In this document: positions 117 through 23,012 of the stretch, piece by piece
Numbering within the stretch: the first letter of the stretch is position 1
Layout of the letters: each line of letters starts with the position of its first letter
Assembly: GCA_000934665.2 (NCBI GenBank)
Contig: JYFJ02000293.1
Location: 124,001-147,190, forward strand
Length of the DNA stretch: 23,190 nucleotides
Direction of reading: 5' to 3'
DNA from: Catajapyx aquilonaris
Lineage: Eukaryota
Program-made: the position numbers and the translations under genes
The notes under the pieces: generated by a model
What the model saw: only the letters and a program-made list of their open reading frames with translations
The model's database searches: none
Told to the model about the DNA's origin: nothing

Positions 117-1967
117 CGCCACTTGCAACGTCGGTAATAACTTCTGACGCGACCAAAATCTGTCTAATTTTTTTAAAAATAATGCTGATTAGTGTACTAA
201 AGCACTAAAGCAGTTACATGTTGAAGATGGTCGTAAAATTACATTCAAAAATTTATTTTTTTGTACATTGTGGAACAGTAATGCTGTGCTCCTCTATCTT
301 TTACGATTATATTTTTTTAAAAATATTTGTAGGTTTGTTCTCTGTGAAGAAAAGCTATTCATGGAGAGAGTTTTCGCGACGTAGTTGTTTTTTTATTTAA
401 AAAAACATTGCTCAGCAAATGTTGAACAAAAGTCATTCTCTAGCCTGTCATCTTTTTATTTTTTTTTCTAGAACTCTTTGAACTATGTTTTTGTAGGCTA
501 ATGACTTTTTTTTAAAATTGCTTTCCATCTCTACCTCTTTTTCATCCCTCAAAAACATGCTTAGGCGATTTTATTAGTTTACTATTGAAAATTCTTTCAG
601 GTAAGGGGGATTTTTCTTCAAATAAAAAAAGAAGGATTGTCTAGTTATTTAAGTATGATGGAAAGTGCTATTTATTTGGACGGAGGAAAAAGAAAAGAAA
701 TTTATGAATGGGACTAGATGTAGTCCTTGGAGGCCATCTATTATATTTTTTTTGGTATTTCCTTCATCCAGGAGTGGACATAAAATATGACATTTCACCA
801 CCGATAAAAATATGTGCGCAATTATTAATACAAGTGAAATGTCGATTTTATGACACTCTTTTGAAAGGTAATAATAATGCTCCTCAAGAAGAAGAAGAAA
901 AAAAAGTATCCTGTACAAACACTTGTAAATAAAGTGGCTTCCAAATCACACAAAACGGAAGCTGTAGCCCTCATGAAATTATTGTGAGTTTATTTTCCCA
1001 CAATCTAGTTACTAATATTATGAATATTAATTTACCTATATATGAATCTTCTGATACAAACTAAACAATAACGTCGTGAAACCAATTTTTGAATTATTTT
1101 GCTATTAGAAATTTCCATTTTCTCTCGTCTAATTATTTTTTAAATTATCGCAACTGATCACTGGCACCAGCAACTTTTTTTTGCACATTTTTTATTACTG
1201 ACTGTTCATTTGCGTGGGTGTAAAGTGACTTTGTAATGTATTGAAGGCTCTGAAAAGTTCTTGATTTCCTTTATCTCGGTGACTACGGGCAGTTATCTAC
1301 TGACTAATCGCTGGCCAAACATTGCGTTCAAAAAAAGTCTATCTTATCAATAAGCTCGGCACGTTGGTGTATACCTATACCAGAGAATGCAAGACTAAAA
1401 TAAAACACTCAAGGTTTCTATGCCTTGTTCAGTAAGTAATGTTCTGATGATTTTTGAGGAGCAATGATGCACTATCATGTACTGAAATTCCATCAATTTT
1501 TGTACTACAAATTTTCAGAAAAAAAAAACAATCCCTCAATTTAATGAGCATCAACATGTGGAGTATTGTACAATATCTCTTCATGCACTGTTTCGTATAA
1601 ATTATTTTGTACACCATGTTTGTTAACAAAAATGATTCAGAGCACTATTTTTTCTGTGTATCTTTCTCTCTGTATTTTTTGTGTCGACATCAATTACCAG
1701 TTCCGGTAGTGAATCACAGCATGAGGCATCCAGGTAAGTTCGACAACGCAGCGATGAAAAATCCCTGGGCGACAATCTAATCTAATCCTCGTGTACTCTT
1801 TGTTCCAATAGGTGAGAAGAAGCGTCCTCTTTTTTTCAACCCACAGTGTGCCAGATAACAAAGCGTTCAGTTTGAGAAGCCAAACGGGATTTGAACGTAC
1901 AGAAAATTTGGAGCAAGTGTGTATCACACACACATTTTTGAAACTTAAAAAAAATAAGTGGTGAAAG

Positions 1968-4928
1968 ATGGCTGGAGGAAGCGGAAGAGGCAAAGGAGAG
2001 AGGGCCATCATGTATCTTGGATATTATGTTGGATTCTGCAACATTCTGGCCTGGGTGAGTTGGAAAAAAAACTTTTGGTTCAAAACCTGAATTTTGTCGT
2101 TATATTATTTTAAATAGGTTGTATGCAATATGGGGCACTTTCCAAGTCACTTCTCCTAGAGCTATCCATCATTGTTATCTCTGGAAGCCAACTATGCACT
2201 TGGCTTCATAGGAAGTCATTGCAATCATTATGTATGATCACATGACAAAGTGTGCACCTAAGGTCTCCAATTGCAATTTTTTTCGTTGTACATACGGATT
2301 ACATGCAATAAGTTTTGATTCAAATTCTGCATAGGCGTACGGTTCATCAGATTAAAATAAGTGAGTTTCTTTCTTGGGATCATTACTGCACACAAATACC
2401 TGCGAGATAAGCGTGACCTCGTAGAAATGGTTAGATATGACTCACTGAACCATCAGTGTTTCTATTTGTACTTAATGGCTACGAGTACGAGAAGTAAACT
2501 GAAGTGTATATAGCCTTAAGAGGGAACCTCATACCAGTTTTAACAATTTTCATGACAATTTTAATGACAATGTGAACATATAGTTAAAAAAAATGATTGT
2601 GCGATCGAGCACATTACGAACTTTCATGAGTTCAGAATAATAACATTTTAAATATAACTTAATGATTTTTAGTCTCATATAGGAATGACCTGTCAGGTGG
2701 CAGCGATAACTTCATGACGTTTCACATCATTTCTGCCTGAGTCACTGTCTGTCAATGTTATCTCTTTGCCCATCTATCCGTTGGAATCTGTATACAGAAA
2801 AATATGTTGAATGACCTGTCTAAACATCAATAATTTCTCTCTCTCTCTCTCATTATGACAGATATTCGGTGTGTGCATATTCAGCTTGGCCCTATGGATC
2901 AGGTTCCAGTCGGACTTCCAGAGCTGGGTGAAGGAGCTTCAGATGTACCAGTACTGGACCGGAGACTACATCCTGCTGGGAGGTGCCATCATCGTCATGA
3001 TCATCTCCTTCCTGGGATGCTGCGGAGTCGCAATGGAGAACGCCTGCATGCTCATGACGGTCTGTACTATATACACACGCAATTGAAGGTCACTTACACT
3101 TCAACTGCAGGAACTGAACGAGGTCCAGACCAGGTCTTCAGAAACTGAACCAGGTTCAGTTCAGGTCTTCAGAAACTGAACCAGGTCCAGACCAGGTCTA
3201 GATCAGGAACTGAACTAGGTCCAGATCAGGTCTTCAGAAACTGAACCAGTCTAGATCAGGTCTTCAGAAACTGAACCAGTCTAGATCAGGAACTGAACTA
3301 GGTCCAGATCAGGTCTTCAGAAACTGAACCAGGTCCAGACCAGGTCTAGATCAGGAACTGAACCAGGTCCAGATCAGGTCTTCAGAAACTGAACCAGGTC
3401 CAGACCAGGTCTTCAGAAAGTGAACCAGGTCCAGATCAGGTCTTCAGAAACTGAACCAGGTCCAGATCAGGGCTTCAGAAACTGAACCAGGTCCAGATCA
3501 GGTTTAGATCAGGTTCAGCTTCCTTCATGGCTGTGTAAATGATCCTGTTTGTTGCATATATTAAATTATCTTTCATTGTTATCGCTGGCTGTCCTATTTG
3601 TGATAATAAATTGTGTGTAGAACGTGGTGATGGGAGTGGTGAGCGTGATCCTATTGTTGGTAGGATCAGTGGCCCAGCTGATCCTGGGCCTGAACTCCAG
3701 AGAGGACGAGGAATGGATCACTGAAAGATTCATTGATATTAAGAAGCGGAACGAGTTCTACATTGACCTTCTCTACTTTCTAAGAGACGTAGTAAGCAGT
3801 TCACCAAAAATATTATTCGCTTTGTGATGTCTCTTTTTTCGAGTAGCTCGCATCACAACGTTTTACTGTGTACGGTGTACTTCTTGTGAACTCAGACAGT
3901 CAGCGATAAAATATAGTTACATATGCACATATGAATGTATTTTTTTCCATTTGGATAGTTTGTAGGATTGTTGTCCTTGACCTTTCTGATCGAGCTGGCC
4001 GGAGCTGCTTACATGCTCAACAATGGAATCGGAGTGTCGCAGCTGGGCAGGTTCCTCCAGGACACCTTCAGAGGTGCGGTGTACACGTACGGAGACAACC
4101 CAAGGATGACATCCATCATGCGAATCATGCAGGAATTCGTGAGTACAAAATATTCGCGTAAATGATGCGGGCTACTCACACAGCAGGCTTTTCATTGTTT
4201 GGAGGGAAAAAAAAAATTTGTTGTCACAAAATGATTACTATTTATTTGTTTTGTCCACAGGTCAAGTGTTGCGGTGCTCAGGGTGCTCAGGACTACAATT
4301 TGGTGCACAAGCCTGTGCCCATCGAGTGCCGTGACCCCGTGACCGGAAATCAGTGGCCCAACGGGTGTGTCAAAGGGTTCTCCGCATACCTGGAGCTCAA
4401 GACAGGCTGGATTTGTGGTCTTGCACTTGTCCTTTGCGTCCTGCAGGTTAGTGACCAGCAGTCAGGTCATCAAGGTGACCTCACTTGGCCTGTATAGTAG
4501 GCTAGGTGCTCATGTCTATATCAGGCACTCAGATAATGATACTAACAAACAGGCCTACATTAATAATTAAACTGTACATAGCAATATTTCCATTGTTAGA
4601 ATTACGCCTTGTAGTATATAATAGTTGGACGAATTACATGAAAGAAAACTCTGGCACATCATTTAAATAATTTATATAATATCAATAAAATGAAAATGGC
4701 CTACATTGTCCCTGCAGATGTTGACTCATCACCTAGGTGCATGTAGTTGCCATAGTTTGGGAGTAGTTATCGCCATCTACTTGTGGCATATCATACTATG
4801 TACTACGTCCAAGTTGGGGGCGGTCTGGGCAGCGTTGTCAAATTTTGGCCCATATTAAATAAATCATTCAGACTTTCTGCCTGACACCATTTGAGCTGAT
4901 TGCCACAACTTTCTTTCAATTAACTTGT

Positions 4929-4992
<64 letters not shown>

Positions 4993-5763
4993 ATAGGCGT
5001 TTCGTTAAAAAAGTTTTTTTTTGAGACAACGTTTTTTGCTCGGTACAGTTTTATCTGATCAGGAGTTTATTTGGGCAATGATACTGGACCACTGCTTTAT
5101 TATTAAGGTCCATCCAACAATGCCTGATCAGACTAGAAAAAATAACTGGGGATTCCCTCCCCCCCGCTTCGTCCTGTGCTACCTTCCAGATATCCAATAT
5201 AGTGGCTGGGGTTCTGCTGGTGCGAAAACTGCGGCAAACAGAAGACGAAGGACGCCGATACGACCCAGTCAAAACGAAATAAACACATACAAAAAACACA
5301 TATCCGAAAAAAAATATTGTAATATATTTTTCTCTTTCAAAAAAATTCGCAAAGCACACAACTTGTCCGCTTCACATGCTTTTTTTCATCTTTCTTCTCG
5401 CCGCGTTTTTATGTCGCCATATTTGGGTGGGGGCATTGCTTTATATATTATTTGGTCGTCATTGCTGAAAAACATTTTTTTTGTCATGTTTTGCAGTGTG
5501 TTCCAACTGAAGTGTCAGTAGTGATTGCTATAATATTAGTAGCTAATATATTATTCAAAAAACAAGTGCTTGCCAATCAGCGTTTCAGTAGATGCCAAAA
5601 ATTCGCAAAATAATCACTATGGACACACAGGTTGGAACGCATCGAATAAATGGACGCAAGCACTATCGCCACATTGTTGTTGCAGATCACTCTGATTGTT
5701 GCCGGAATCATCCTCGTGCGGAACATCAAGAAATCAGATCGCCCATCAAAAGGCGCATATTGA
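1968..5763 (+). CDS. Tsp2A: Tetraspanin, Tsp2A-like (smooth septate junction type); ~242 aa with exon 3B or ~239 aa with exon 3A
   Basis: Exons 1968-2054 (MAGGSGRGKGERAIMYLGYYVGFCNILAW), 2862-3059 (IFGVCIFSLALWIRF...ISFLGCCGVAMENACMLMT), 3621-3791 or 3959-4138, 4261-4446 (VKCCGAQGAQDY...PVPIECRDPVTGN...GCV...KTGWICGLALVLCVLQ) and 5686-5763 (ITLIVAGIILVRNIKKSDRPSKGAY*). All introns are GT-AG, phase 0. Four TMs, CCG motif, and a P.P..CRD.VTGN...GC...KTGW segment as recalled for Tsp2A. AATAAA at 5931-5940. Tetraspanin call is firm; Tsp2A orthology is from memory. Confidence 0.88.
3108..3515. repeat. Intronic minisatellite, ~31-bp unit AGGTCTTCAGAAACTGAACCAGGTCCAGATC with variants
   Basis: More than 10 head-to-tail copies read directly in tetraspanin intron 2. 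Confidence 0.95.
3621..3791 (+). CDS. Tetraspanin alternative exon 3A (TM3 + N-part of EC2)
   Basis: tgtgtag|AAC...GTA|gtaagc; 171 nt, phase 0-0, open frame: NVVMGVVSVILLLVGSVAQLILGLNSREDEEWITERFIDIKKRNEFYIDLLYFLRDV. Hydrophobic TM followed by a polar helical segment, the same layout as 3B. Confidence 0.72.
3841..4177 (+). promoter_or_regulatory. Putative selector (3841-3855) / docking site (4163-4177) RNA duplex flanking exon 3B
   Basis: GAGTAGCTCGCATCA is complementary to TGATGCGGGCTACTC over 15 bp (14 Watson-Crick pairs + 1 G-U). Confidence 0.65.
3959..4138 (+). CDS. Tetraspanin alternative exon 3B (TM3 + N-part of EC2)
   Basis: ttggatag|TTT...TTC|gtgagt; 180 nt, phase 0-0: FVGLLSLTFLIELAGAAYMLNNGIGVSQLGRFLQDTFRGAVYTYGDNPRMTSIMRIMQEF. 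Typical TM3 Glu and IMQ motif preceding CCG. Confidence 0.88.
4930..4992. repeat. (TAG)21 microsatellite
   Basis: Pure trinucleotide run in the last tetraspanin intron. Confidence 0.97.
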
Positions 5764-6013: not shown

Positions 6014-6790
6014 TGTAAGGAATTTGCGATTACAGCACGTTTTTTTTGCAACACTGGCCGGCGACTCCGAATTCCATTGTTGTATGGACTAAACAACAAT
6101 TTTATCGTATACAGCTTATTTCGAAGAAAAAAAAAATCAACCCCAGCAATTCTATTCTTCATTATCCACGCTGACTGTAAGGAATTTGTAATTACATGAT
6201 TTTTTTTGCAACACTGCCCGGCGACTCCGAATATTCCATTGTTGTATGGGCTAAAAATTGAAACAAAAATTTTTATCGTAGATACAGCATATTTTTCAAA
6301 AATCAACCCCGCAACGACTCTATTCTTTATTATCCACGCTGAATGCAAGGAATTTGTGATTACATTAGGGAGCATATACTATACATAAGAGGCGAGAACA
6401 TTCGATTTTCGTGTCTCTCTGTTTGGGGCGTTGCCAAGGGGCGGCCATTTTGAAGTGTGTGCAACGCCAACGAGGTATAAATAGGGCACAGGCAAAAAGA
6501 AGGTCCGCCATCTTTAATTCACTCGTGATCTTGCCGTGTAGTTGCCATGGGCGCCAAAACCATCAAAGATGGCGGACCCAATTTTTGCCTGTGCCCTATT
6601 TATACCTCGTTGGCGTTACCCACACTTCAAAATTGCCGCCAGCCTTGGCAATGGCCCCAAACAGAGAGACGCGAACATCAAAGGCACCGACAGAAGTTTG
6701 CGCTTCTTATGTAGTGTATGCTCCCTGATTACATGCTCTTTATCAGGCTGGCGACTCCTAATTACAACGTTGTTATTCTCACAATTTGCA
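6014..6790. repeat. Degenerate ~165-bp tandem repeat (3 copies; third interrupted by a MITE)
   Basis: Units start tgtaaggaatttg at 6014 and 6176, and tgcaaggaatttg at 6344. Shared blocks gcaacactg..cggcgactccga, ttccattgttgtatgg, attatccacgctga. The third copy resumes after 6735 (ggcgactcc at ~6750). Confidence 0.8.
6367..6726. mobile_element. Foldback/MITE with long TIRs and 8-9 bp TSD (Mutator- or hAT-like)
   Basis: Ends AGGGAGCATATACTATACATAAGA / TCTTATGTAGTGTATGCTCCCT; ~150-bp imperfect inverted arms (e.g. aacgccaacgaggtataaatagggcacaggcaaaaa / tttttgcctgtgccctatttatacctcgttggcgtt). Flanked by GATTACAT(T) 6358-6366 and GATTACAT(G) 6727-6735. Confidence 0.88.
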
Positions 6791-7729: not shown

Positions 7730-8140
7730 AGCCGCGTTTACATGCAGCCGAGTTGATCGGTTTTTCCGACCGGCCTAAGCGCGCCGTATGATTGATGCTG
7801 CGTTTACATGGGCAGCGATGTACGTTCGAAAATATATTGTAACATCGCTGCGCATGTAAACGCAGCATCAATCATACGGCGCGCTTAGGACGGTCGTACA
7901 TCGCTGCACATGTACATCGGTCGTACATCTGTCGTACATCGCTGCGCATGTACATCGGTCGTACATCGCTGAGCATGTACATCGCTCGTACATCGCTGCG
8001 CATGTACATCGGTCGTACATCGGTCATACATCGCTGCGCATGTAAACGCAACTTCGGTCATACGAAGCGGTTAGGACAGCCGGAAAAACTGATAGTTCAG
8101 CTTCAGTCATACGAAGCGCTTTGGACGGTTGGAACGACCG
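7730..8140. mobile_element. Nested palindromic MITE-like element (GCGTTTACATG termini, PIF/Harbinger-like) with internal tandem repeats
   Basis: AGCCGCGTTTACATG (7730) / CATGTAAACGCAACT (ends 8053). Near-perfect ~55-bp-arm palindrome 7767-7896; tandem GTACATCGCTGCGCATGTACATCGGTC repeats 7896-8040; 8054-8094 is a degenerate reverse complement of 7756-7796. No clear TSD. Confidence 0.7.
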
Positions 8141-8363: not shown

Positions 8364-8753
8364 CAGGGTGAATGGAAACTCGTGTGCAATTAATCGCCAC
8401 CTAGACGGATAGTACTTGCAATTAGTGCAATTAGTTTTGTGCGCCTTTAATGTGTACGGCGCCTTTGAAGTTTCGCCAGCCATAAAGAAGCAAAGGCCAG
8501 CTCGAGGGCCTTCGAACAATCCAGCCTTGTGACCGTAACCATCGTCCATGCCCAATAGGGGATCAAATCCCGTCAGAGTAATAATCCAGGTAGGTTTTTG
8601 CCTCATATTTTACCTTCTGGTCCTCTACACTCTAAAGGCACAGTACGCATTAACTACGCACCGGCGCCCAAAACTAATTGCACATCCATATATTTCGCGA
8701 CTATTGTGAGTACTATCAGCCTGGCGATTGGGCACGAGTTCCCATTCACGCTG
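8364..8753. mobile_element. Tc1/mariner-type MITE (TA TSD) in eIF5 intron 1
   Basis: TA|CAGGGTGAATGGAAACTCGTG ... CACGAGTTCCCATTCACGCTG|TA; further internal inverted blocks (tgcaattagtttt / aaaactaattgca); 390 bp, non-coding. Confidence 0.88.
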
Positions 8754-10675: not shown

Positions 10676-12142
10676 ATGGCCACCTACAATGTGAACCGTG
10701 GGGTGACGGACGCGTACTACCGCTACAAGATGCCTCGTCTCGTGGCCAAGGTGGAAGGGAAGGGCAACGGGATCAAGACCGTCATCGTCAACATGGTCGA
10801 CGTTGCCAAGGCGCTCGGGAGGCCTCCCACATGTAAGTGGCAGCCATTAACTGCTCACTGTCTGTAGAATCACGTTTTCCTCGATCCAACCCAGATCCGA
10901 CCAAGTACTTCGGATGCGAGCTCGGTGCTCAGACGCAGTTTGACTTCAAGAACGAGCGGTTCGTGGTGAACGGCAGCCACGACGCGGACCGCCTGCAGGA
11001 GCTTCTCGACGGGTTCATTCGCAAGTTCGTCCTGTGCCCGGAGTGCGACAACCCCGAGACGGTGCTGCACGTGCAGTCCAAGCGAGGCCAGGTCTCGCAG
11101 TCCTGCAAGGCCTGCGGGCACTCCTGCACGCTCGACCATCGCCACAAGCTCCTCACCTTTGTCCTTAAGAACCCACCAGGTCAGGATTCTTCTAAGTTTT
11201 CCCCCCTGGTGAGAATGTGTTTTTCATAAATCGTTGCGGACATTTCCAGACCAGAAACCGGCAGCCCAGGGCTCATCCCTGACGGAAGGCAAGCGCGGGA
11301 AGCGTGGATCGAAGAAGAGCAGCCCTCCAAAGGAGGACTCCCCATCCCCACCGACGGAGAAAAACGGAGAGAGCCGTGGCCACAAGGACGACGACGACGA
11401 CGATGGGGATTGGTGTGTCGATGTCAGCGAGGAGGCAGTCAGGGCGAGGATGCAGGCGCTCGGAGAAGGCATTGTCAAAGGTCAGATCTGCTCACATACA
11501 CAAGCGGTTGTCCGTTTCTGACGTTCTGATGTTACTTGCAGGTCTGAACCTGGTGGATGTGGCGGAGACCTCCGAGCGTAACCGCCTGGACAACTTCTAC
11601 ACCTTCATCCGCTCCAAGCTGGAGGGCGATCAGCTTGACCCTCGGAAGGTGTGCGCAGAGGCCGACGCCTTGGGAATCAAGCCGAAGGCCCCGCTTGTGC
11701 TGGCCGAGCTCCTCCTCCTGGACCAAGCCGACGGGAAAGGTGCCGCCGGGGTGCTCCAGCAGATCAAGAAGTACGCCAAACTGTTTGCCTGCTTCACCCA
11801 GGGCTGCCCTCGAGCGCAGAGATACCTGCTGGGTGGGATCGAGCAGCTGGTTGCTTCCAACAAGGACACGCTGATGCCCAAAGTTCCGCATATTCTGAAG
11901 GTTCGTTTGCATTGGATTTACCAGTTTGTACGACAAGTGCGACAATTTTTCGTTTGTGCTTCTTTTTAAAGGTGTTTTACGACCTTGACATCTTGGATGA
12001 GGAGGTGATCCTGGACTGGGGGAAGAAGCCAAGCAAGAAGTTTGTGAGCCGCGACGTCAGCGCTGAGATCCGGGGCAAGGCGGCTCCATTCCTGAAGTGG
12101 CTGGAGGAGGCCGAGTACGAAGACGAAGACGACACCGAGTAG
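10676..12142 (+). CDS. eIF5: Eukaryotic translation initiation factor 5 (400 aa)
   Basis: Exons 10676-10832, 10895-11179, 11250-11480, 11542-11900, 11972-12142; GT-AG, phases consistent, 1203 nt. N-term [16 protein letters not shown]...GKGNGIKT...[14 protein letters not shown], zinc finger CPECDNPET...CKACG, C-terminal W2 AA-boxes ([25 protein letters not shown]). Confidence 0.97.
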
Positions 12143-13293: not shown

Positions 13294-15981
13294 TTATTTG
13301 TCGTCGTCTTCAAGCTCCTCGTACTGGAAATCCTCGGGGGGAGCCTCGGTCATTCGGACGGTGAGGCGGACGGGAAGGGACAGGAGGGATTTGCGGGTGG
13401 AGGATGTGACTGGGTTGTCTCGTAGGTCGAACTCTTGCAAGGAGGTGCAGGCACGGACTGCTTCCACTTCCACCTCTGTTGGGGGGATAATGAGCGGATA
13501 ATTAGCCTGCTTTTTTTAAATGAAGCTGGAGACTTACCTGCAATGTAGTTCTTTAAGGCGTTGAGGTGCATTATACGGGGAAGCTTGAAGAGGGCGCGGG
13601 GAAGGGTCGCGAAAGAGTTGTGCGAGATGTTGACTCGACGGAGCCTATGCAGCTCGGACACCTCGTCGGGAAGCTTGCTCAACCTGTTGTTCGACAGGTT
13701 CAAGTCTGAAAAGACACATTGATGCTTATTGAGTAATTAGCGCGTCGGTATTGCCCAGTGAGTGTTGCAATAGTATGTTGCTCTCACGTGCCAGTGACGT
13801 GTACCGTCTGTGGGTTGGTGGAGAGAGTTTGACTCTGTGGGAAATCCCCAGCATGTGGCAGACTTCCAGGATTCCGATCCAGGAATAGATCGGACCAAGC
13901 AGCCAGTGTGTTTCGCAATGTGTTGCCAACCCAAGAGCCGCGCAGAATATATCTCGCTCTCTCTCTTTTTTTTTCTTAAAGGTGCGTTATTTTGCATTTC
14001 GACGAGGTCCTGAACCCTTGCCAAAATTTCTGGTTAGTCCCAACACGTCTGTTTACCTCCGCACTTTTTCTTGGAAGCGCCCGATGTGTATCTGGTGCGA
14101 ATAGAGAAGCCACGGTCATTCACGTGCGCAATTGCGTAATTACAATGGTGTGTACATGTCGGGCTGAAAGTACTGTGGTGTAATACGATTTGGAATTCTG
14201 TGAATTTGCACAATGCGCCATTGGCCGTTTAACTTCATCGCAAAGGACAGAATTTACAGAGTTACCTGACTTGAAATGCTGGTTTAAAATCACCTAATGT
14301 TAGTTAACGAACAATTGGTTTTTCCTACATATTTATACGTTTGAAGCTGGTATTTAAGGTAGTTAACATTGTATTTAGACTACTTGTAGAATTAATTTTT
14401 AACAAAGTTGAGCGAGTTATGGGAGGAATGTTATGGTTGATTTGTTGATGAGAAATTTTTGTCCGTAAAAATTGGCAAATTGTCTCTTACAGAGGTTCGC
14501 AACAATTGTTGCTTCTTTACGAACTTGTAGCGTAAGCAACCATTTCTTCGTGAACTGGTGAGTATATGGCTCGTTCCACTTTTAATATTGATGTAAAAAT
14601 TTGGCAACTTTTTTCGCAGGACCTGGAAGCGGCCAAAAATCCTGGAAGTGTTTTTGACCAAGCCGATCTTAAAATAAGCAGCTTTTCTTTTAAAAAAAGA
14701 TGAGCCGAACTGGGCTGTTTGTGTTAGAAACGATGACCTCACACTGGGTTTCCCCACAACATCAGCGTCAACCACGTGGGTTGCTACGGATCTTTCATGA
14801 GAAGAAAGAAAGAGAGGTGAAGACGGTCAGCGTCCTTCCAGGTTCTATTTCGAGAAGCAGAAAATTTTGACTTTTTGCCCAACGATGGCGAAACTGCGCA
14901 TCTGACTGCTTGCTGATCGTAGCTTTTTATTTATTTTGTACGGTGTTTATTTTGCATCCTTGTTACCAATCAAATTTTGGCTGGAAGCCAAAATTGCACT
15001 GCGAGGTAGAGGGATTTTGAAAAAAAAAAAAAAAAAGTTGTTGTGACAGGTTTTTGCCTAGTGCTCAAGGTTTTGGATTTTTGCAAAACATTGCAAAATT
15101 TTCCTCGCTACAACTATTGTTGTAGGATAATTTTCAATCTACAATTTCAATCTAAGAATCCTCGTCAAACCCTTGAGCACGAGACACTGTCACAACAATG
15201 TATTAATTTATTTTTTTAATTTGAAAAATCTATCTATTCGCAGCTATTGTTGTTGTAGTAATGGCTGATATAACATAATTTTCTTTGTCACTTGTAGGAT
15301 GAATTTTAAAAATTGTTGAATTGAAAAAAATTTGCAAATTGTCTTTTATAGCAGTTATTTTCCCCTTTCTTTTAAATTAGCGCACAATAAAGCCTCGTTT
15401 ACATGTGAGCGATTTGACAAGCGAAGCAGTGCGATTATCGCCTCAAACAATAGGTACTGATTACATTGGTTACTCGACAATGTTATCGCTCGTCGAAGGC
15501 TTCGCTCATCAAATCGCTCATATGTAAATGCAGCTTAAGTCAAATCATGGGAACAAATTGGAATGTGCTGGACCTATCCTGACAACTTCTGTTCAAACGG
15601 TCAATGTCCTGAGTGGACAACTTACATGCCATTGGCTACGTAAGTTGTCTGGGAGTACATTTCCCCTTTTATTACTCAACTGTTTGCTCTGTTTACTCAC
15701 CAGTGATGAAGGTGAACTTGAGGGCCAACTTGGGTGGAATCTTTGTGATGACGTTTGAGGAGAGGTTGCAACCCTGAAGCTGCGTGTGGCGCATCAGGTG
15801 AAACACAGCATCAGGAATCTGCATCAGCTGGCACTCGCTCAGATCTGCCAAAAATCATACAGAGAGAGAGAACCTGATCAGTTATGTGGCAATGGTGCCA
15901 TTTTGTTGTGATCTGACCTAAGACCAGAGTGATGGTCGCATCCTCGCAACGATGGACCACGCGAGTTACAGCGTTCGCCAT
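13294..15981 (-). CDS. LRRC20: Leucine-rich repeat protein LRRC20-like, proximal-first-exon isoform (185 aa)
   Basis: Exons 15981-15918 (MANAVTRVVHRCEDATITLVL), 15844-15701 (DLSECQLMQIPDAVFHLMRHTQLQGCNLSSNVITKIPPK...), 13705-13538 (DLNLSNNRLSKLPDEV...), 13475-13294 (EVEVEAVRACTSLQEFDLRDNP...EDDDK*). All introns GT-AG, phase 1. AV.RV...LDL.EC.L N-terminus as recalled for LRRC20. Confidence 0.88.
15000..15242. mobile_element. Degenerate inverted-repeat element (old MITE) in LRRC20 intron
   Basis: Symmetric inverted blocks ttgttgtgacag/ctgtcacaacaa and gtgctcaagg/ccttgagcac around a central ctacaac..gttgtag hairpin. Boundaries approximate. Confidence 0.5.
15391..15535. mobile_element. PIF/Harbinger (Tourist-like) MITE, 145 bp, TAA TSD
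   Basis: TAA|AGCCTCGTTTACATGTGAGCGATTTGA ... TCAAATCGCTCATATGTAAATGCAGCT|TAA. Confidence 0.85.
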
Positions 15982-16225: not shown

Positions 16226-16706
16226 CTTCTACAGATGAAGCTTCTACAGCTTCTACAGAAAAAGCTTCTACAGCTTATTACAGCTTTTACAGCTTATTAC
16301 AGCTTCTACAGAAGTAGCTTCTACAGCTTCTTACAGCTTCTACAGAAGTAGCTTCTACAGCTTCTTACAGCTTCTACAGAAGTAGCTTCTACAGCTTCTA
16401 CAAAAGTAGCTTCTACAGAAGTAGATTCTACAGCTTCTACAGAAGTAGATTCTACAGCTTCTACAGAAGTAGCTTCTACAGCTTCTACAGAAGTAGCTTC
16501 TACAGCTTCTACACCTTCTACAGAAGTAGCTTCTACAGCTTCTACACCTTCTACAGAAGTAGCTTCTACAGCTTCTACACCTTCTACAGAAGTAGCTTCT
16601 ACAGCTTCTGACAGCTTCTACAGAAGTAGCTTCTACAGCTTCTGACAGCTTCTACAGAAGTAGCTTCTACAGCTTCTGACAGCTTCTACAGAAGTAGCTT
16701 CTACAG
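16226..16706. repeat. Minisatellite built from CTTCTACAG / AAGTAG modules
   Basis: ~480 bp of agcttctacagaagt / agcttctac variants lying between the two LRRC20 first exons. Confidence 0.95.
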
Positions 16707-17501
16707 TAGAAATGGAAGTTTTGGAATGGATTTACATGCCAATGACAGCTTCACAGTTACATGATGTCAGGCAATGAGGGATATCAAGTGGATATTAATA
16801 ATGTGAGCGCATGTCCAGAACTCCAGATGAATAGTTTGTGGACGTGGTTGTGGATCATGAGTGAAGATGGAATGTTTCCAAGGCCTCATCAAAGGCGTAA
16901 GATGTTGCTATCGTGTGATAACTGGCACGTTGCCTGGTAAACAAGCTTGTGCTCTCTACGCCACCTGAACTCCATTTATCACGTAGGTCGCAACATATTG
17001 ATGACCAGATGGATGGTAATTAAGCCAATCACACCATTCACCTCCAATCCCTGGCTTATTATTATTGGTAATTCAATGAAAACTGAATTATTCAAAGAAA
17101 ACACTGCGACAACTACTGATTTGACCCTGAACGCATGTTTTGCAATGAATTTTCATCACCATTGTCACCAAGAAGTGAGTCACATTCGGATTCCCATGGG
17201 TGTTTACAAACTGGAATTTCCCATTGTGAATTTTTTTTGCTTAAACTAGGCTACAGTGTGTGAAATAATGAATCAAAAAAGTTCACCACATGACACCTAT
17301 ATGAAAAGTTGCCCAACACTTTCGCCCGGAGTGTGAAACACCTTGTAGCTGGGAGGGTTCGGGAGAAAAGCATGTTAAGCGCCACTTGGCAAAGCCACAA
17401 TAACGTTCGTTATTCGAACGTTATTGTGGCTTTACCAAGAGTGGTGCTTAACATATGCTTTTCTTCCGAGAGCCACTTTCACCCCAAAAAAAGAGACTCA
17501 C

Positions 17502-21997: not shown

Positions 21998-22964
21998 ATG
22001 AAGACCAGCATCCCGGAATTAATCCAGATTAAGAGAGGTGGTCACGAGTGGACCGAAGACCAGGTCAGGCACCTGGTGAGGTCAATCGTGACCAAACAAG
22101 TGGCCGAGTCACAAATAGGTAAGTGATTAACCAGAAGAGGGAATAAAATCAGTGAATAATTTTTCGGTTTGCAGGAGCAATGTTGATGGCTATAGTGTTG
22201 AATGGGATTGGCGCCAAGGAGACTGCGGCTTTGACAAAAGCCATGGTCGAAACAGGTACTGTTAACTGTTTTTTTTTGTAACAGCTATAGTAGGGGTAAG
22301 CTAACTTATGGGTTTTTGGGAGGTGGCTTGTGTCCTTCGCAACCATAATTAGCTCCGCCCCCTACCGGTCGACCAATCAGGATTCGATTTCATAACGCCC
22401 ATCTCCTTTGAAATCGAATCCTGATTGGTCGACCGGTAGGGGGCGGGGCTAATTATGGTTGCCAATGTCACTATAGCCACCTCCCAAAAACCCATAAGTT
22501 AGCTTACCCCTACTCTGCCGTCCGCTCAAAGAAAACCGTAACTCAAAATCCACTTCCCTTGCGGTGAGAAAAGTAAGCAAGTGTTACCGAAAGCATCCAA
22601 GAGGTGGCGTTGAAGGAAGTGAGAAAGGAACGGGCACCCAAAGTCCACCTGTTGGATGATTTTGGTACCACTACTTTTTTTTCTCGCCGCAAGGGAAAGT
22701 GGATGTTGAGTTACGGTCTTCTTCGAGCGGATGGCAGTACTGTAGTTTGACCAACCATTCTTTCAAACGTAGGTGATCGCATGAAGTGGCCGTCTGAATG
22801 GCGTGGTCAGCTTGTGGACAAACATAGCACTGGAGGAGTAGGCGACAAAGTGTCTCTGATTCTGGCTCCAGCCTTGGCCTCTGCTGGACTCAAGGTGCCT
22901 ATGGTCAGCGGAAGAGGACTCAGCTTCACTGGAGGGACACTGGACAAGCTGGAGTCTATTCCAG
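21998..22964 (+). CDS. TYMP: Thymidine phosphorylase, 5' partial (continues beyond window)
   Basis: Exons 21998-22118 ([15 protein letters not shown]...ESQI), 22175-22255 ([11 protein letters not shown]...[12 protein letters not shown]), 22773-22964 (GDRMKWP...[22 protein letters not shown]...[24 protein letters not shown]). Signature motifs [10 protein letters not shown] and [18 protein letters not shown]. Confidence 0.95.
22289..22514. mobile_element. Near-perfect palindromic MITE/foldback (~105-bp arms) in TYMP intron 2
   Basis: AGTAGGGGTAAGCTAACTTATGGGTTTTTGGGAGGTGGCT... / ...AGCCACCTCCCAAAAACCCATAAGTTAGCTTACCCCTACT with a short central loop. Confidence 0.88.
22515..22737. mobile_element. 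Second MITE abutting the first, long imperfect TIRs, followed by TA
   Basis: CTGCCGTCCGCTCAAAGAAAACCGTAACTCAA / TTGAGTTACGGTCTTCTTCGAGCGGATGGCAG|TA; inner inverted blocks atccactt/aagtggat and cccttgcgg/ccgcaaggg. Confidence 0.85.
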
Positions 22965-23012
22965 GTCAGTATATTCACGTCCTGTAAAAAGTGGGCGTGG
23001 CCTAGAGGGCCA

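Follow-up and report, generated by a model that had tools for sequence, protein, structure and literature searches.

A stretch of 23,190 nucleotides (nt) from Catajapyx aquilonaris (GenBank assembly GCA_000934665.2, contig JYFJ02000293.1, positions 124,001 to 147,190 of the forward strand) was analysed at its full length, which is referred to below as the window, with positions counted from its first letter. As judged from sequence, the + strand between 1894 and approximately 5800 is one CD9/CD81-like tetraspanin gene of six exons, and all coding junctions of this gene are in phase 0. An earlier sequence-only reading of the window had called the product Tsp2A-like, after a Drosophila tetraspanin of smooth septate junctions, and had proposed that two tandem exons of the gene, here designated 3A and 3B, are mutually exclusive and exchange the third of its four transmembrane segments (TM1 to TM4) together with the scaffold of the second extracellular loop (EC2; the first is EC1). 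The exons of the gene and the arms of two intronic RNA helices described below are collected in Table 1.

Table 1. Exons of the tetraspanin gene, the candidate exon 3A and the arms of the two intronic helices (positions in the window)
Feature	Position	Strand	Transcript contig piece	Description
Exon 1, coding part	1968-2054	+	1894-2053	ATG to donor TGG/gtgagt; beginning of TM1
Exon 2	2862-3059	+	2861-3058	Remainder of TM1, EC1, TM2; ends ...ENACMLMT
Exon 3A (candidate)	3621-3791	+		57 codons; hydrophobic helix followed by polar helix; proposed from sequence, no RNA cover
Exon 3B	3959-4138	+	3958-4138	60 codons; encodes TM3, then helices A and B of EC2; present in the transcript contig
Exon 4	4261-4446	+	4261-4443	Starts VKCCG; two more cysteines; first half of TM4; contig joint 4443>5187 (cut at +3)
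Exon 5A	5190-5318	+	5187-5318	Completes TM4 and encodes the C-terminal tail; TAA stop codon at 5280-5282; internal, donor after 5318
Exon 5B	5686-5763	+		Duplicate of the 5A coding part, diverged from it; TGA stop codon at 5761-5763; downstream of 5A in the contig
Helix A, 5' arm	3579-3593	+		27 nt upstream of the 3A acceptor
Helix B, 5' arm	3841-3855	+		49 nt downstream of the 3A donor
Helix A, 3' arm	3895-3909	+		49 nt upstream of the 3B acceptor
Helix B, 3' arm	4163-4177	+		24 nt downstream of the 3B donor

The identity of the gene as a tetraspanin, already claimed in the sequence-only reading, was borne out by family and structure-database searches. Exon 2 alone scored 35.7 bits against Pfam PF00335 (Tetraspanin), above the cut-off of 32.1, and exon 4 alone scored 30.6 bits, slightly below that cut-off; neither 3A nor 3B matched PF00335 when searched alone, and 3B alone matched no Pfam family of any kind. 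For 3A the only Pfam candidate was Ephrin_lbd at E 0.055, which was rejected. In a sequence search of the PDB, exon 2 aligned with residues 29-94 of human CD9 (6k4j) with an E value of 1.5e-11, and with CD81 (5tcx, 7jic) and CD53 (6wvg) with E values of 3e-4 to 1e-3. Exon 4 gave no match in the same search and none of 3A, 3B or exon 4 alone matched these or other tetraspanin entries. By the similarity of exon 2 the closest solved proteins are CD9, then CD81 and CD53; these matches establish no orthology to a named tetraspanin, fly Tsp2A included. Exon 4 carries CCG together with two more EC2 cysteines ahead of the TM4 stretch, as seen in the tetraspanin family. By inspection, hydrophobic stretches fall in exons 1/2, 2, 3B (or 3A) and 4/5, those of 3A and 3B being the ones that were scored. 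When the peptides of all exons were compared with the window by tblastn the sole cross-match was between 5A and 5B, and neither another copy of 3A or 3B nor a second tetraspanin gene was detected in the window.

Transcript evidence was drawn from one public run, the kind of which is not on record, kept as contigs with a share of sampled words of 0.21, and the contigs of this run were mapped onto window positions 1700-5700. One 881-nt transcript contig was obtained that is 100% identical to the window (0 differences) and maps in the pieces listed in Table 1. Its joints 3058>3958 (cut at +1, equivalent to 3059>3959), 4138>4261 and 4443>5187 all have GT..AG ends, and one further joint, adjoining a skipped repeat at 2825-2860, was dropped in the mapping and is taken as the junction of exons 1 and 2. 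The 27 loose letters of the contig past 5318 correspond exactly to 5686-5712. The mRNA assembled in that run is 1-2-3B-4-5A-5B. Exon 3B is confirmed as a real exon and is the form that was assembled. The junctions predicted for a 3B-containing mRNA, 3059>3959 and 4138>4261, were both found, whereas 3A received no cover; as contigs lose minor or rare forms, this result shows only that 3A is not part of the major form in that sample.

The two open, phase 0-0 exons that had been proposed to lie between the exons carrying TM2 and CCG were recovered at exactly the coordinates first given. Exon 3A is 171 nt long with 57 open codons, an acceptor ...ttgtgtgtag/AAC, the AG of which comes from a TAG codon directly preceding the exon, and a donor GTA/gtaagc. 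Exon 3B is 180 nt long with an acceptor ...ttccatttggatag/TTT and a donor TTC/gtgagt, and the intron between the two is 167 nt in length with GT..AG ends. The splice sites, originally described as good, do have AG/GT borders at both exons, but the pyrimidine tract of the 3A acceptor is poor. As neighbouring exons of the same phase and of similar length (171 and 180 nt), 3A and 3B resemble known mutually exclusive pairs in arrangement. Enforcement of exclusion by a short intron, by incompatible spliceosomes or by a frame shift followed by decay was not indicated for this pair; with an intron of 167 nt, and with exon lengths that are both multiples of three, exclusion cannot be imposed by steric hindrance or by decay. 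The 3A donor at 3786-3797 is a tandem GTAGTAAG; a donor 3 bases upstream (exon end 3788) would also be in frame and would remove one valine. A 31-nt minisatellite at 3108-3503 (12.9 copies, 85% matches by Tandem Repeats Finder) takes up the greater part of the intron that precedes 3A, and each of its units carries CAGGTC/CAGGTT motifs resembling 5' splice sites.

To characterize the coding signal of 3A, base composition and codon usage were compared with those of the confirmed exons and of intronic sequence. The introns of the gene have a GC content of 35-45%. The GC content at third codon positions (GC3) of 3A is 0.67, against a maximum of 0.61 over 1798 intronic windows of 171 nt and a range of 0.66-0.83 in the confirmed exons 2, 3B and 4. 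Codon log-odds were trained on the confirmed exons, each of which was scored with itself excluded. In the proposed frame 3A scored +0.416 per codon, and its two remaining frames gave -0.55 and -0.68, while confirmed exons ranged from -0.22 to +0.82 and the maximum of 1794 intronic windows was 0.215. As this measure is partly driven by a hydrophobic amino-acid make-up, a score using synonymous choices only was added, with the neighbouring eIF5-like gene as reference. By this score 3A reached -0.067, compared with 0.25, 0.11 and 0.04 for exons 2, 3B and 4, -0.31 for exon 5A and -0.60 for exon 1, and with a mean of -0.79 and a maximum of -0.46 for 54 stop-free intronic windows. From these sequence statistics it was concluded that 3A probably is, or has been, under coding constraints, precisely in the frame that fits the neighbouring exons.

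An inverted-repeat scan of 3040-4300 yielded two isolated 15-nt pairs with 93% complementarity, designated helices A and B. Helix A encloses 3A and consists of 14 Watson-Crick pairs plus one G-U pair (-24.0 kcal/mol), and helix B encloses 3B and consists of 14 Watson-Crick pairs plus one U-G pair (-26.0 kcal/mol). Since the single non-Watson-Crick position in each case is a G-U or U-G pair on the sense strand, continuous 15-bp helices are possible in the sense RNA only. The order of the arms is A5', B5', A3', B3', such that the two helices cross, and no shared docking element was found, all four arms being distinct. Two stems with 14 of 15 Watson-Crick pairs were seen in 3523-4260, where 1000 dinucleotide shuffles gave a mean of 0.022, with two or more stems in 0.5% of them. 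When the flanks of each internal exon were compared, the longest helix of Watson-Crick and G-U pairs was 15 for both 3A (reached in 6 of 400 shuffles) and 3B (4 of 400), and 11 for exon 2 (118 of 400), exon 4 (148 of 400) and exon 5A (248 of 400), and around exon 5A no bracketing helix of 14 of 15 or better was present. Stable flanking complementarity above chance, as would be expected of exons that are looped out, was found for 3A and for 3B. Weaker pairs at 3597-3612:4215-4230 (-15.1 kcal/mol) and 3808-3827:4224-4243 (-9.8 kcal/mol) overlap at 4224-4230. A transposon with 15-bp terminal inverted repeats was considered as the source of the arms and rejected, as helix B encloses the expressed exon 3B and the helices end at approximately 15 bp. 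The 9-mer CAGCGATAA, which forms the core of the helix A 3' arm, has a third copy at 2701-2709 in intron 1, approximately 150 nt upstream of exon 2; this 9-mer occurs 3 times in the 23-kb window, always within this gene, where 0.11 occurrences are expected, and the extra match could be due to chance.

Folding of 3523-4260 or of 3060-4260 predicted helix A with a probability of approximately 0.95 and helix B with a probability of approximately 0, and the minimum energies with either helix forced were -220.3 (helix A) and -212.0 (helix B). When 3621-4260 was folded, which lacks the helix A 5' arm and corresponds to the RNA remaining after exon 2 has been joined to 3A, helix B was predicted with a probability of 0.98. 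Local pairing between the 3B donor region and the 3' arm of helix B (4141-4145:4173-4177 and 4153-4159:4165-4171) is predicted in the minimum-energy fold. This hairpin at 4141-4177 is weak, and it could mask the 3B 5' splice site while helix B is unformed.

The peptides encoded by 3A and 3B were then compared. Each is predicted to consist of one transmembrane segment followed by a polar helical stretch, as the sequence-only reading had described, and this was supported by both hydropathy and predicted helices. The maximum Kyte-Doolittle value over 19 residues was 2.56 for 3A and 1.82 for 3B. AlphaFold models of the single peptides gave helices at residues 2-23 and 27-56 for 3A (predicted local distance difference test score, pLDDT, 85.7), the first being a 22-residue hydrophobic helix, and helices at 2-21, 26-45 and 48-59 for 3B (pLDDT 76.2), consistent with a canonical TM3, EC2 helix A, turn and EC2 helix B. 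By inspection only, the residues preceding CCG in 3A, 3B and CD81 share an acidic residue at -4 and hydrophobic residues at -2, -6, -9 and -10 from the first cysteine. In a language-model atlas 3B found one tetraspanin fragment cluster, at rank 3 with a score of 0.84; all atlas scores were below 0.9 and such matches serve as leads only. Several candidate relatives were discarded. A metagenome scan with 3A returned a single locus that matched residues 3-21 only and belongs to a bacterial MnhG-like membrane protein, a match attributed to chance. In the PDB sequence search 3A found only KAT5 chromodomain entries (E 2-2.8) and 3B found actinohivin (E 0.003) by way of a short repeated motif, neither of which was considered meaningful.

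Duplication of an exon is evident at the 3' end of the gene. Exons 5A and 5B matched each other by tblastn with E values of 0.004-0.005 and share the pattern I..IVAG..LVR, their tails reading ISNIVAGVLLVRK... (5190-5318) and ITLIVAGIILVRN... (5686-5763). Over 45-nt strings 24 of 45 positions are identical, and among the first 12 codons 8 residues are identical, the third codon base differing in 7 of these 8. Synonymous sites appear saturated while residues are kept, and third-base differences at kept residues point to old copies that were both retained by selection at the protein level. In the contig mRNA the stop codon of 5A precedes the 5318>5686 junction by 36 nt, so that exon 5B is 3' untranslated region there. 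Skipping of 5A would yield the 5B tail as a second C-terminus, with a different TM4 end and cytoplasmic tail. That the gene appears to maintain alternative duplicated exons at one position raises the prior probability that 3A is also an alternative exon.

Coding-like codon usage, the two bracketing helices and the precedent of 5A/5B together give added support to an interpretation in which 3A is a real exon, used rarely or conditionally in place of the default exon 3B, with which it would form a plausible mutually exclusive pair; we put the chances of this interpretation at about even. Helix B encloses an exon that would otherwise be essential, an arrangement that is sensible only if 3B can be replaced. 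The mutual exclusivity originally proposed finds backing in frame-compatible alternatives for TM3 and EC2, in a coding-like 3A and in bracketing helices particular to each exon, but RNA containing 3A was not found in the run. Double inclusion or double skipping of the two exons would stay in frame but would give five or three membrane helices, so that the choice between them must fall at the RNA level. We infer the use of 3A, its exclusivity with 3B and the role of the helices, and envisage the following course of events. Helix A would form once transcribed, hide 3A and bring exon 2 to 3B; this would be the default outcome and matches the contig. Splicing of exon 2 to 3B would remove the 5' arm of helix B, such that 3B would not be looped out and would be joined to exon 4. 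Where helix A is blocked or outrun, exon 2 would instead be joined to 3A, and the 5' arm of helix A would leave with the intron. Helix B could then form and enclose 3B, with the result that 3A would be joined to exon 4 and 3B skipped. Protein made with 3A would differ in its third membrane helix and, within the large outer loop, in the stalk (helices A and B of EC2) beneath the CCG-bearing head. Combination of a 3A/3B switch operated by crossing helices in the absence of a docking site with an independent swap of the 5A/5B tails would allow up to four proteins to be made from the two sites, a scheme that must be considered doubtful.

Several observations weigh against use of 3A. No part of 3621-3791 was covered by RNA, and in the sole contig exon 2 is followed by 3B without any branch. 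The pyrimidine tract of the 3A acceptor is weaker than that of 3B, as judged by reading and without a splice-site scoring model. The exons are very divergent, as was noted at the outset; a BLASTP comparison of 3A with 3B produced no alignment at E<=100, and their global alignment score of 7 was matched or beaten by 1036 of 5000 segment-wise shuffles. An origin of the pair by tandem duplication, which on sequence grounds would predict detectable similarity, is accordingly not demonstrated. In searches for relatives of 3A among longer proteins, a word-index search left 0 of 19 candidates at E<=1; the same search left none of 39 candidates for 3B and none of 9 for exon 2, so the collection evidently does not contain this lineage and the negative result for 3A carries little weight. 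An exhaustive phmmer search of 1.84 billion representatives with 3A gave 0 matches at E<=0.001, and neither the language-model atlas nor the PDB search linked 3A to a tetraspanin. The second predicted helix of 3A, with 30 residues and no turn, is unlike the canonical EC2 stalk, a mild objection as single-peptide models judge turns poorly. The excess of GC3 over GC content at the first and second codon positions, a measure of periodicity, was equalled by 42 of 1798 intronic windows.

The helices are open to similar objections. The duplex energies of whole flanks are unremarkable for the flanks of helix A (41 of 500 shuffles) and modest for those of helix B (7 of 500); the z values obtained (-1.38, -2.52 and +1.11) come from a measure that tolerates long internal loops and discriminates poorly, and it was replaced by the stem-based tests given above. 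Real DNA is richer in stems than its shuffles, and four other isolated stems of 14 of 15 as well as several long palindromes are present in the 23-kb window. From the rate in the window we estimate that approximately 0.13 stems would be expected in the 738-nt interval, by which estimate two are still unusual at roughly P 0.01. The folding program cannot draw crossing helices, and the probability of approximately 0 for helix B beside helix A is in part methodological.

The best surviving alternative, although in our judgement an unlikely one, is that 3A is a retired or silenced pseudo-exon, derived from a former or captured exon, and that helix A merely keeps it out of mRNA. A silenced exon would be expected to lack RNA cover, with the contig passing unbranched from exon 2 into 3B, and it could have a weak acceptor tract, no homology to 3B and no recognisable likeness to tetraspanins; enclosure of 3A by helix A at a predicted probability of approximately 0.95 would also suit this explanation. 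However, an intact frame, intact splice sites and a bias in GC3 are unexpected after long neutral decay in introns of 35-39% GC, and helix B around an essential 3B would be purposeless. If 3A is not used, the locus would be an ordinary tetraspanin gene plus a silenced pseudo-exon.

That 3A is a chance open frame within an intron, with coincidental splice-like borders, hydrophobic stretch and helices, was considered improbable. Openness over the length of 3A is unremarkable on its own, other + strand frames of 54 to 170 codons being found mostly within the introns of this gene; AG and GT are frequent, homologues of 3A were found neither by the word-index search nor by phmmer, and short stems occur elsewhere in the window too. 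A chance frame would not, however, be expected to have a GC3 (0.67) above all 1798 intronic windows or codon scores above all 1794 windows and all 54 stop-free windows, solely in the frame fitting the flanking exons, nor would significant bracketing helices be expected at the flanks of 3A and 3B only, two of the five internal exons tested.

Equally improbable is use of 3A without strict exchange, either as a cassette included together with 3B, giving a five-helix product that would probably be non-functional or regulatory, or in single-exon circular RNAs driven by the helices. Complementary sequences flanking an exon can drive its circularisation, exon lengths of 171 and 180 nt would keep double inclusion or skipping in frame and so out of reach of nonsense-mediated decay, and the 167-nt intervening intron is long enough to be spliced, but in a five-helix product the CCG loop would face the wrong side of the membrane. 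The interleaved helix order suits an either/or choice, and the contig contains no circular or double-inclusion joint, although contigs cannot exclude such forms.

With 3A taken as an alternative exon to 3B, the pair can be set beside described systems. Hatje et al. (2017; PMC5740500), in the part of the paper covered here, consider cassette splicing very unlikely for two neighbouring exons that are similar in length, share their phase and each encode one membrane helix, and report several annotated mutually exclusive exons lacking sequence homology, such that similarity is usual and not obligatory. Exons 3A and 3B are likewise adjacent, of like length and the same phase, with one membrane helix each, and would fall under the same argument if 3A is used; the predictions in those passages required similarity, whereas 3A and 3B have none that is detectable. 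The words 'Tetraspanin' and 'TSPAN' have 0 occurrences in the main text of that paper, to which the check extended; its supplements might list one.

Competing RNA structures in mutually exclusive splicing, formed by a docking site and selectors, have been described by Ivanov and Pervouchine (2018; PMC6071210), and folding of the human ATE1 transcript during its synthesis influences the ratio of exons 7a and 7b (Kalinina et al. 2020; PMC7797038). As far as the abstracts of these papers go, those systems and 3A/3B are alike in having intronic complementary elements around a two-exon cluster, of which only one conformation would act at a time. In docking systems a single docking element (R3 in ATE1) is contested by two selectors (R1 and R4), whereas 3A/3B would employ four different arms. 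Competition at 3A/3B would stem instead from the crossing of the helices and from removal of an arm of the other helix by the first splice, a feature absent from both abstracts. If real, the 3A/3B pair would join a well-known kind of exon pair, and the RNA structure that enforces it is possibly a new variant. Such enforcement of exclusion would be distinct from docking/selector, steric and decay-based mechanisms, and the short, well-defined bracketing helices would offer a testable model of either/or exon choice without a shared docking site.

Among human tetraspanins, isoforms with altered membrane helices and C-termini, or with a different stop after exon skipping, were reported by Hochheimer et al. 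(2019; PMC6773723), and in the passages covered no premature stop preceded the last junction by more than 50 nt; in the present gene the distance from the 5A stop to the last junction is 36 nt. The term 'Mutually exclusive' occurs 0 times in the text of that paper, and the passages covered do not report any like-for-like exchange of TM3 together with the stalk of EC2. The sequence-only reading knew of no description of such a swap for Tsp2A. A literature search at the level of search listings agreed with this, finding no tetraspanin with mutually exclusive exons and no TM3/EC2-stalk swap; one Schistosoma paper contained both 'tetraspanin' and mutually exclusive splicing terms, the two not being linked. 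Tetraspanins organise membrane partners by way of their membrane helices and large outer loop. The proposed swap would replace TM3 and the stalk of the loop, keep the cysteine-knotted head and give one gene two partner surfaces.

Further features were noted elsewhere in the window. Intron 4 of the tetraspanin gene contains a perfect (GTA)21 microsatellite at 4929-4992. Three neighbouring coding regions were recognised from open frames: one at approximately 10676-12142 (+), which we take to be an eIF5-like gene (MATYNVNRG...KMPRL...), one at 13350-13736 (-), presumably an exon of a leucine-rich-repeat protein, and one at 22751-22987 (+), assumed to be an exon with a thymidine/pyrimidine-nucleoside phosphorylase motif. 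Tandem repeats at 16318-16651 are open in several frames on both strands (STEVAST.../SFYRSSFY...); by the tests run they are low-complexity sequence and not a gene. Long imperfect palindromes, built as chains of 14-15-nt complementary blocks about one axis, were found at 6367-6726, 7731-8050, 8368-8749, 17359-17469, 22287-22516 and 22529-22723. These are probably foldback or MITE-like (miniature inverted-repeat transposable element-like) elements, and tandem copies of one palindrome arm are present in 7800-8050.

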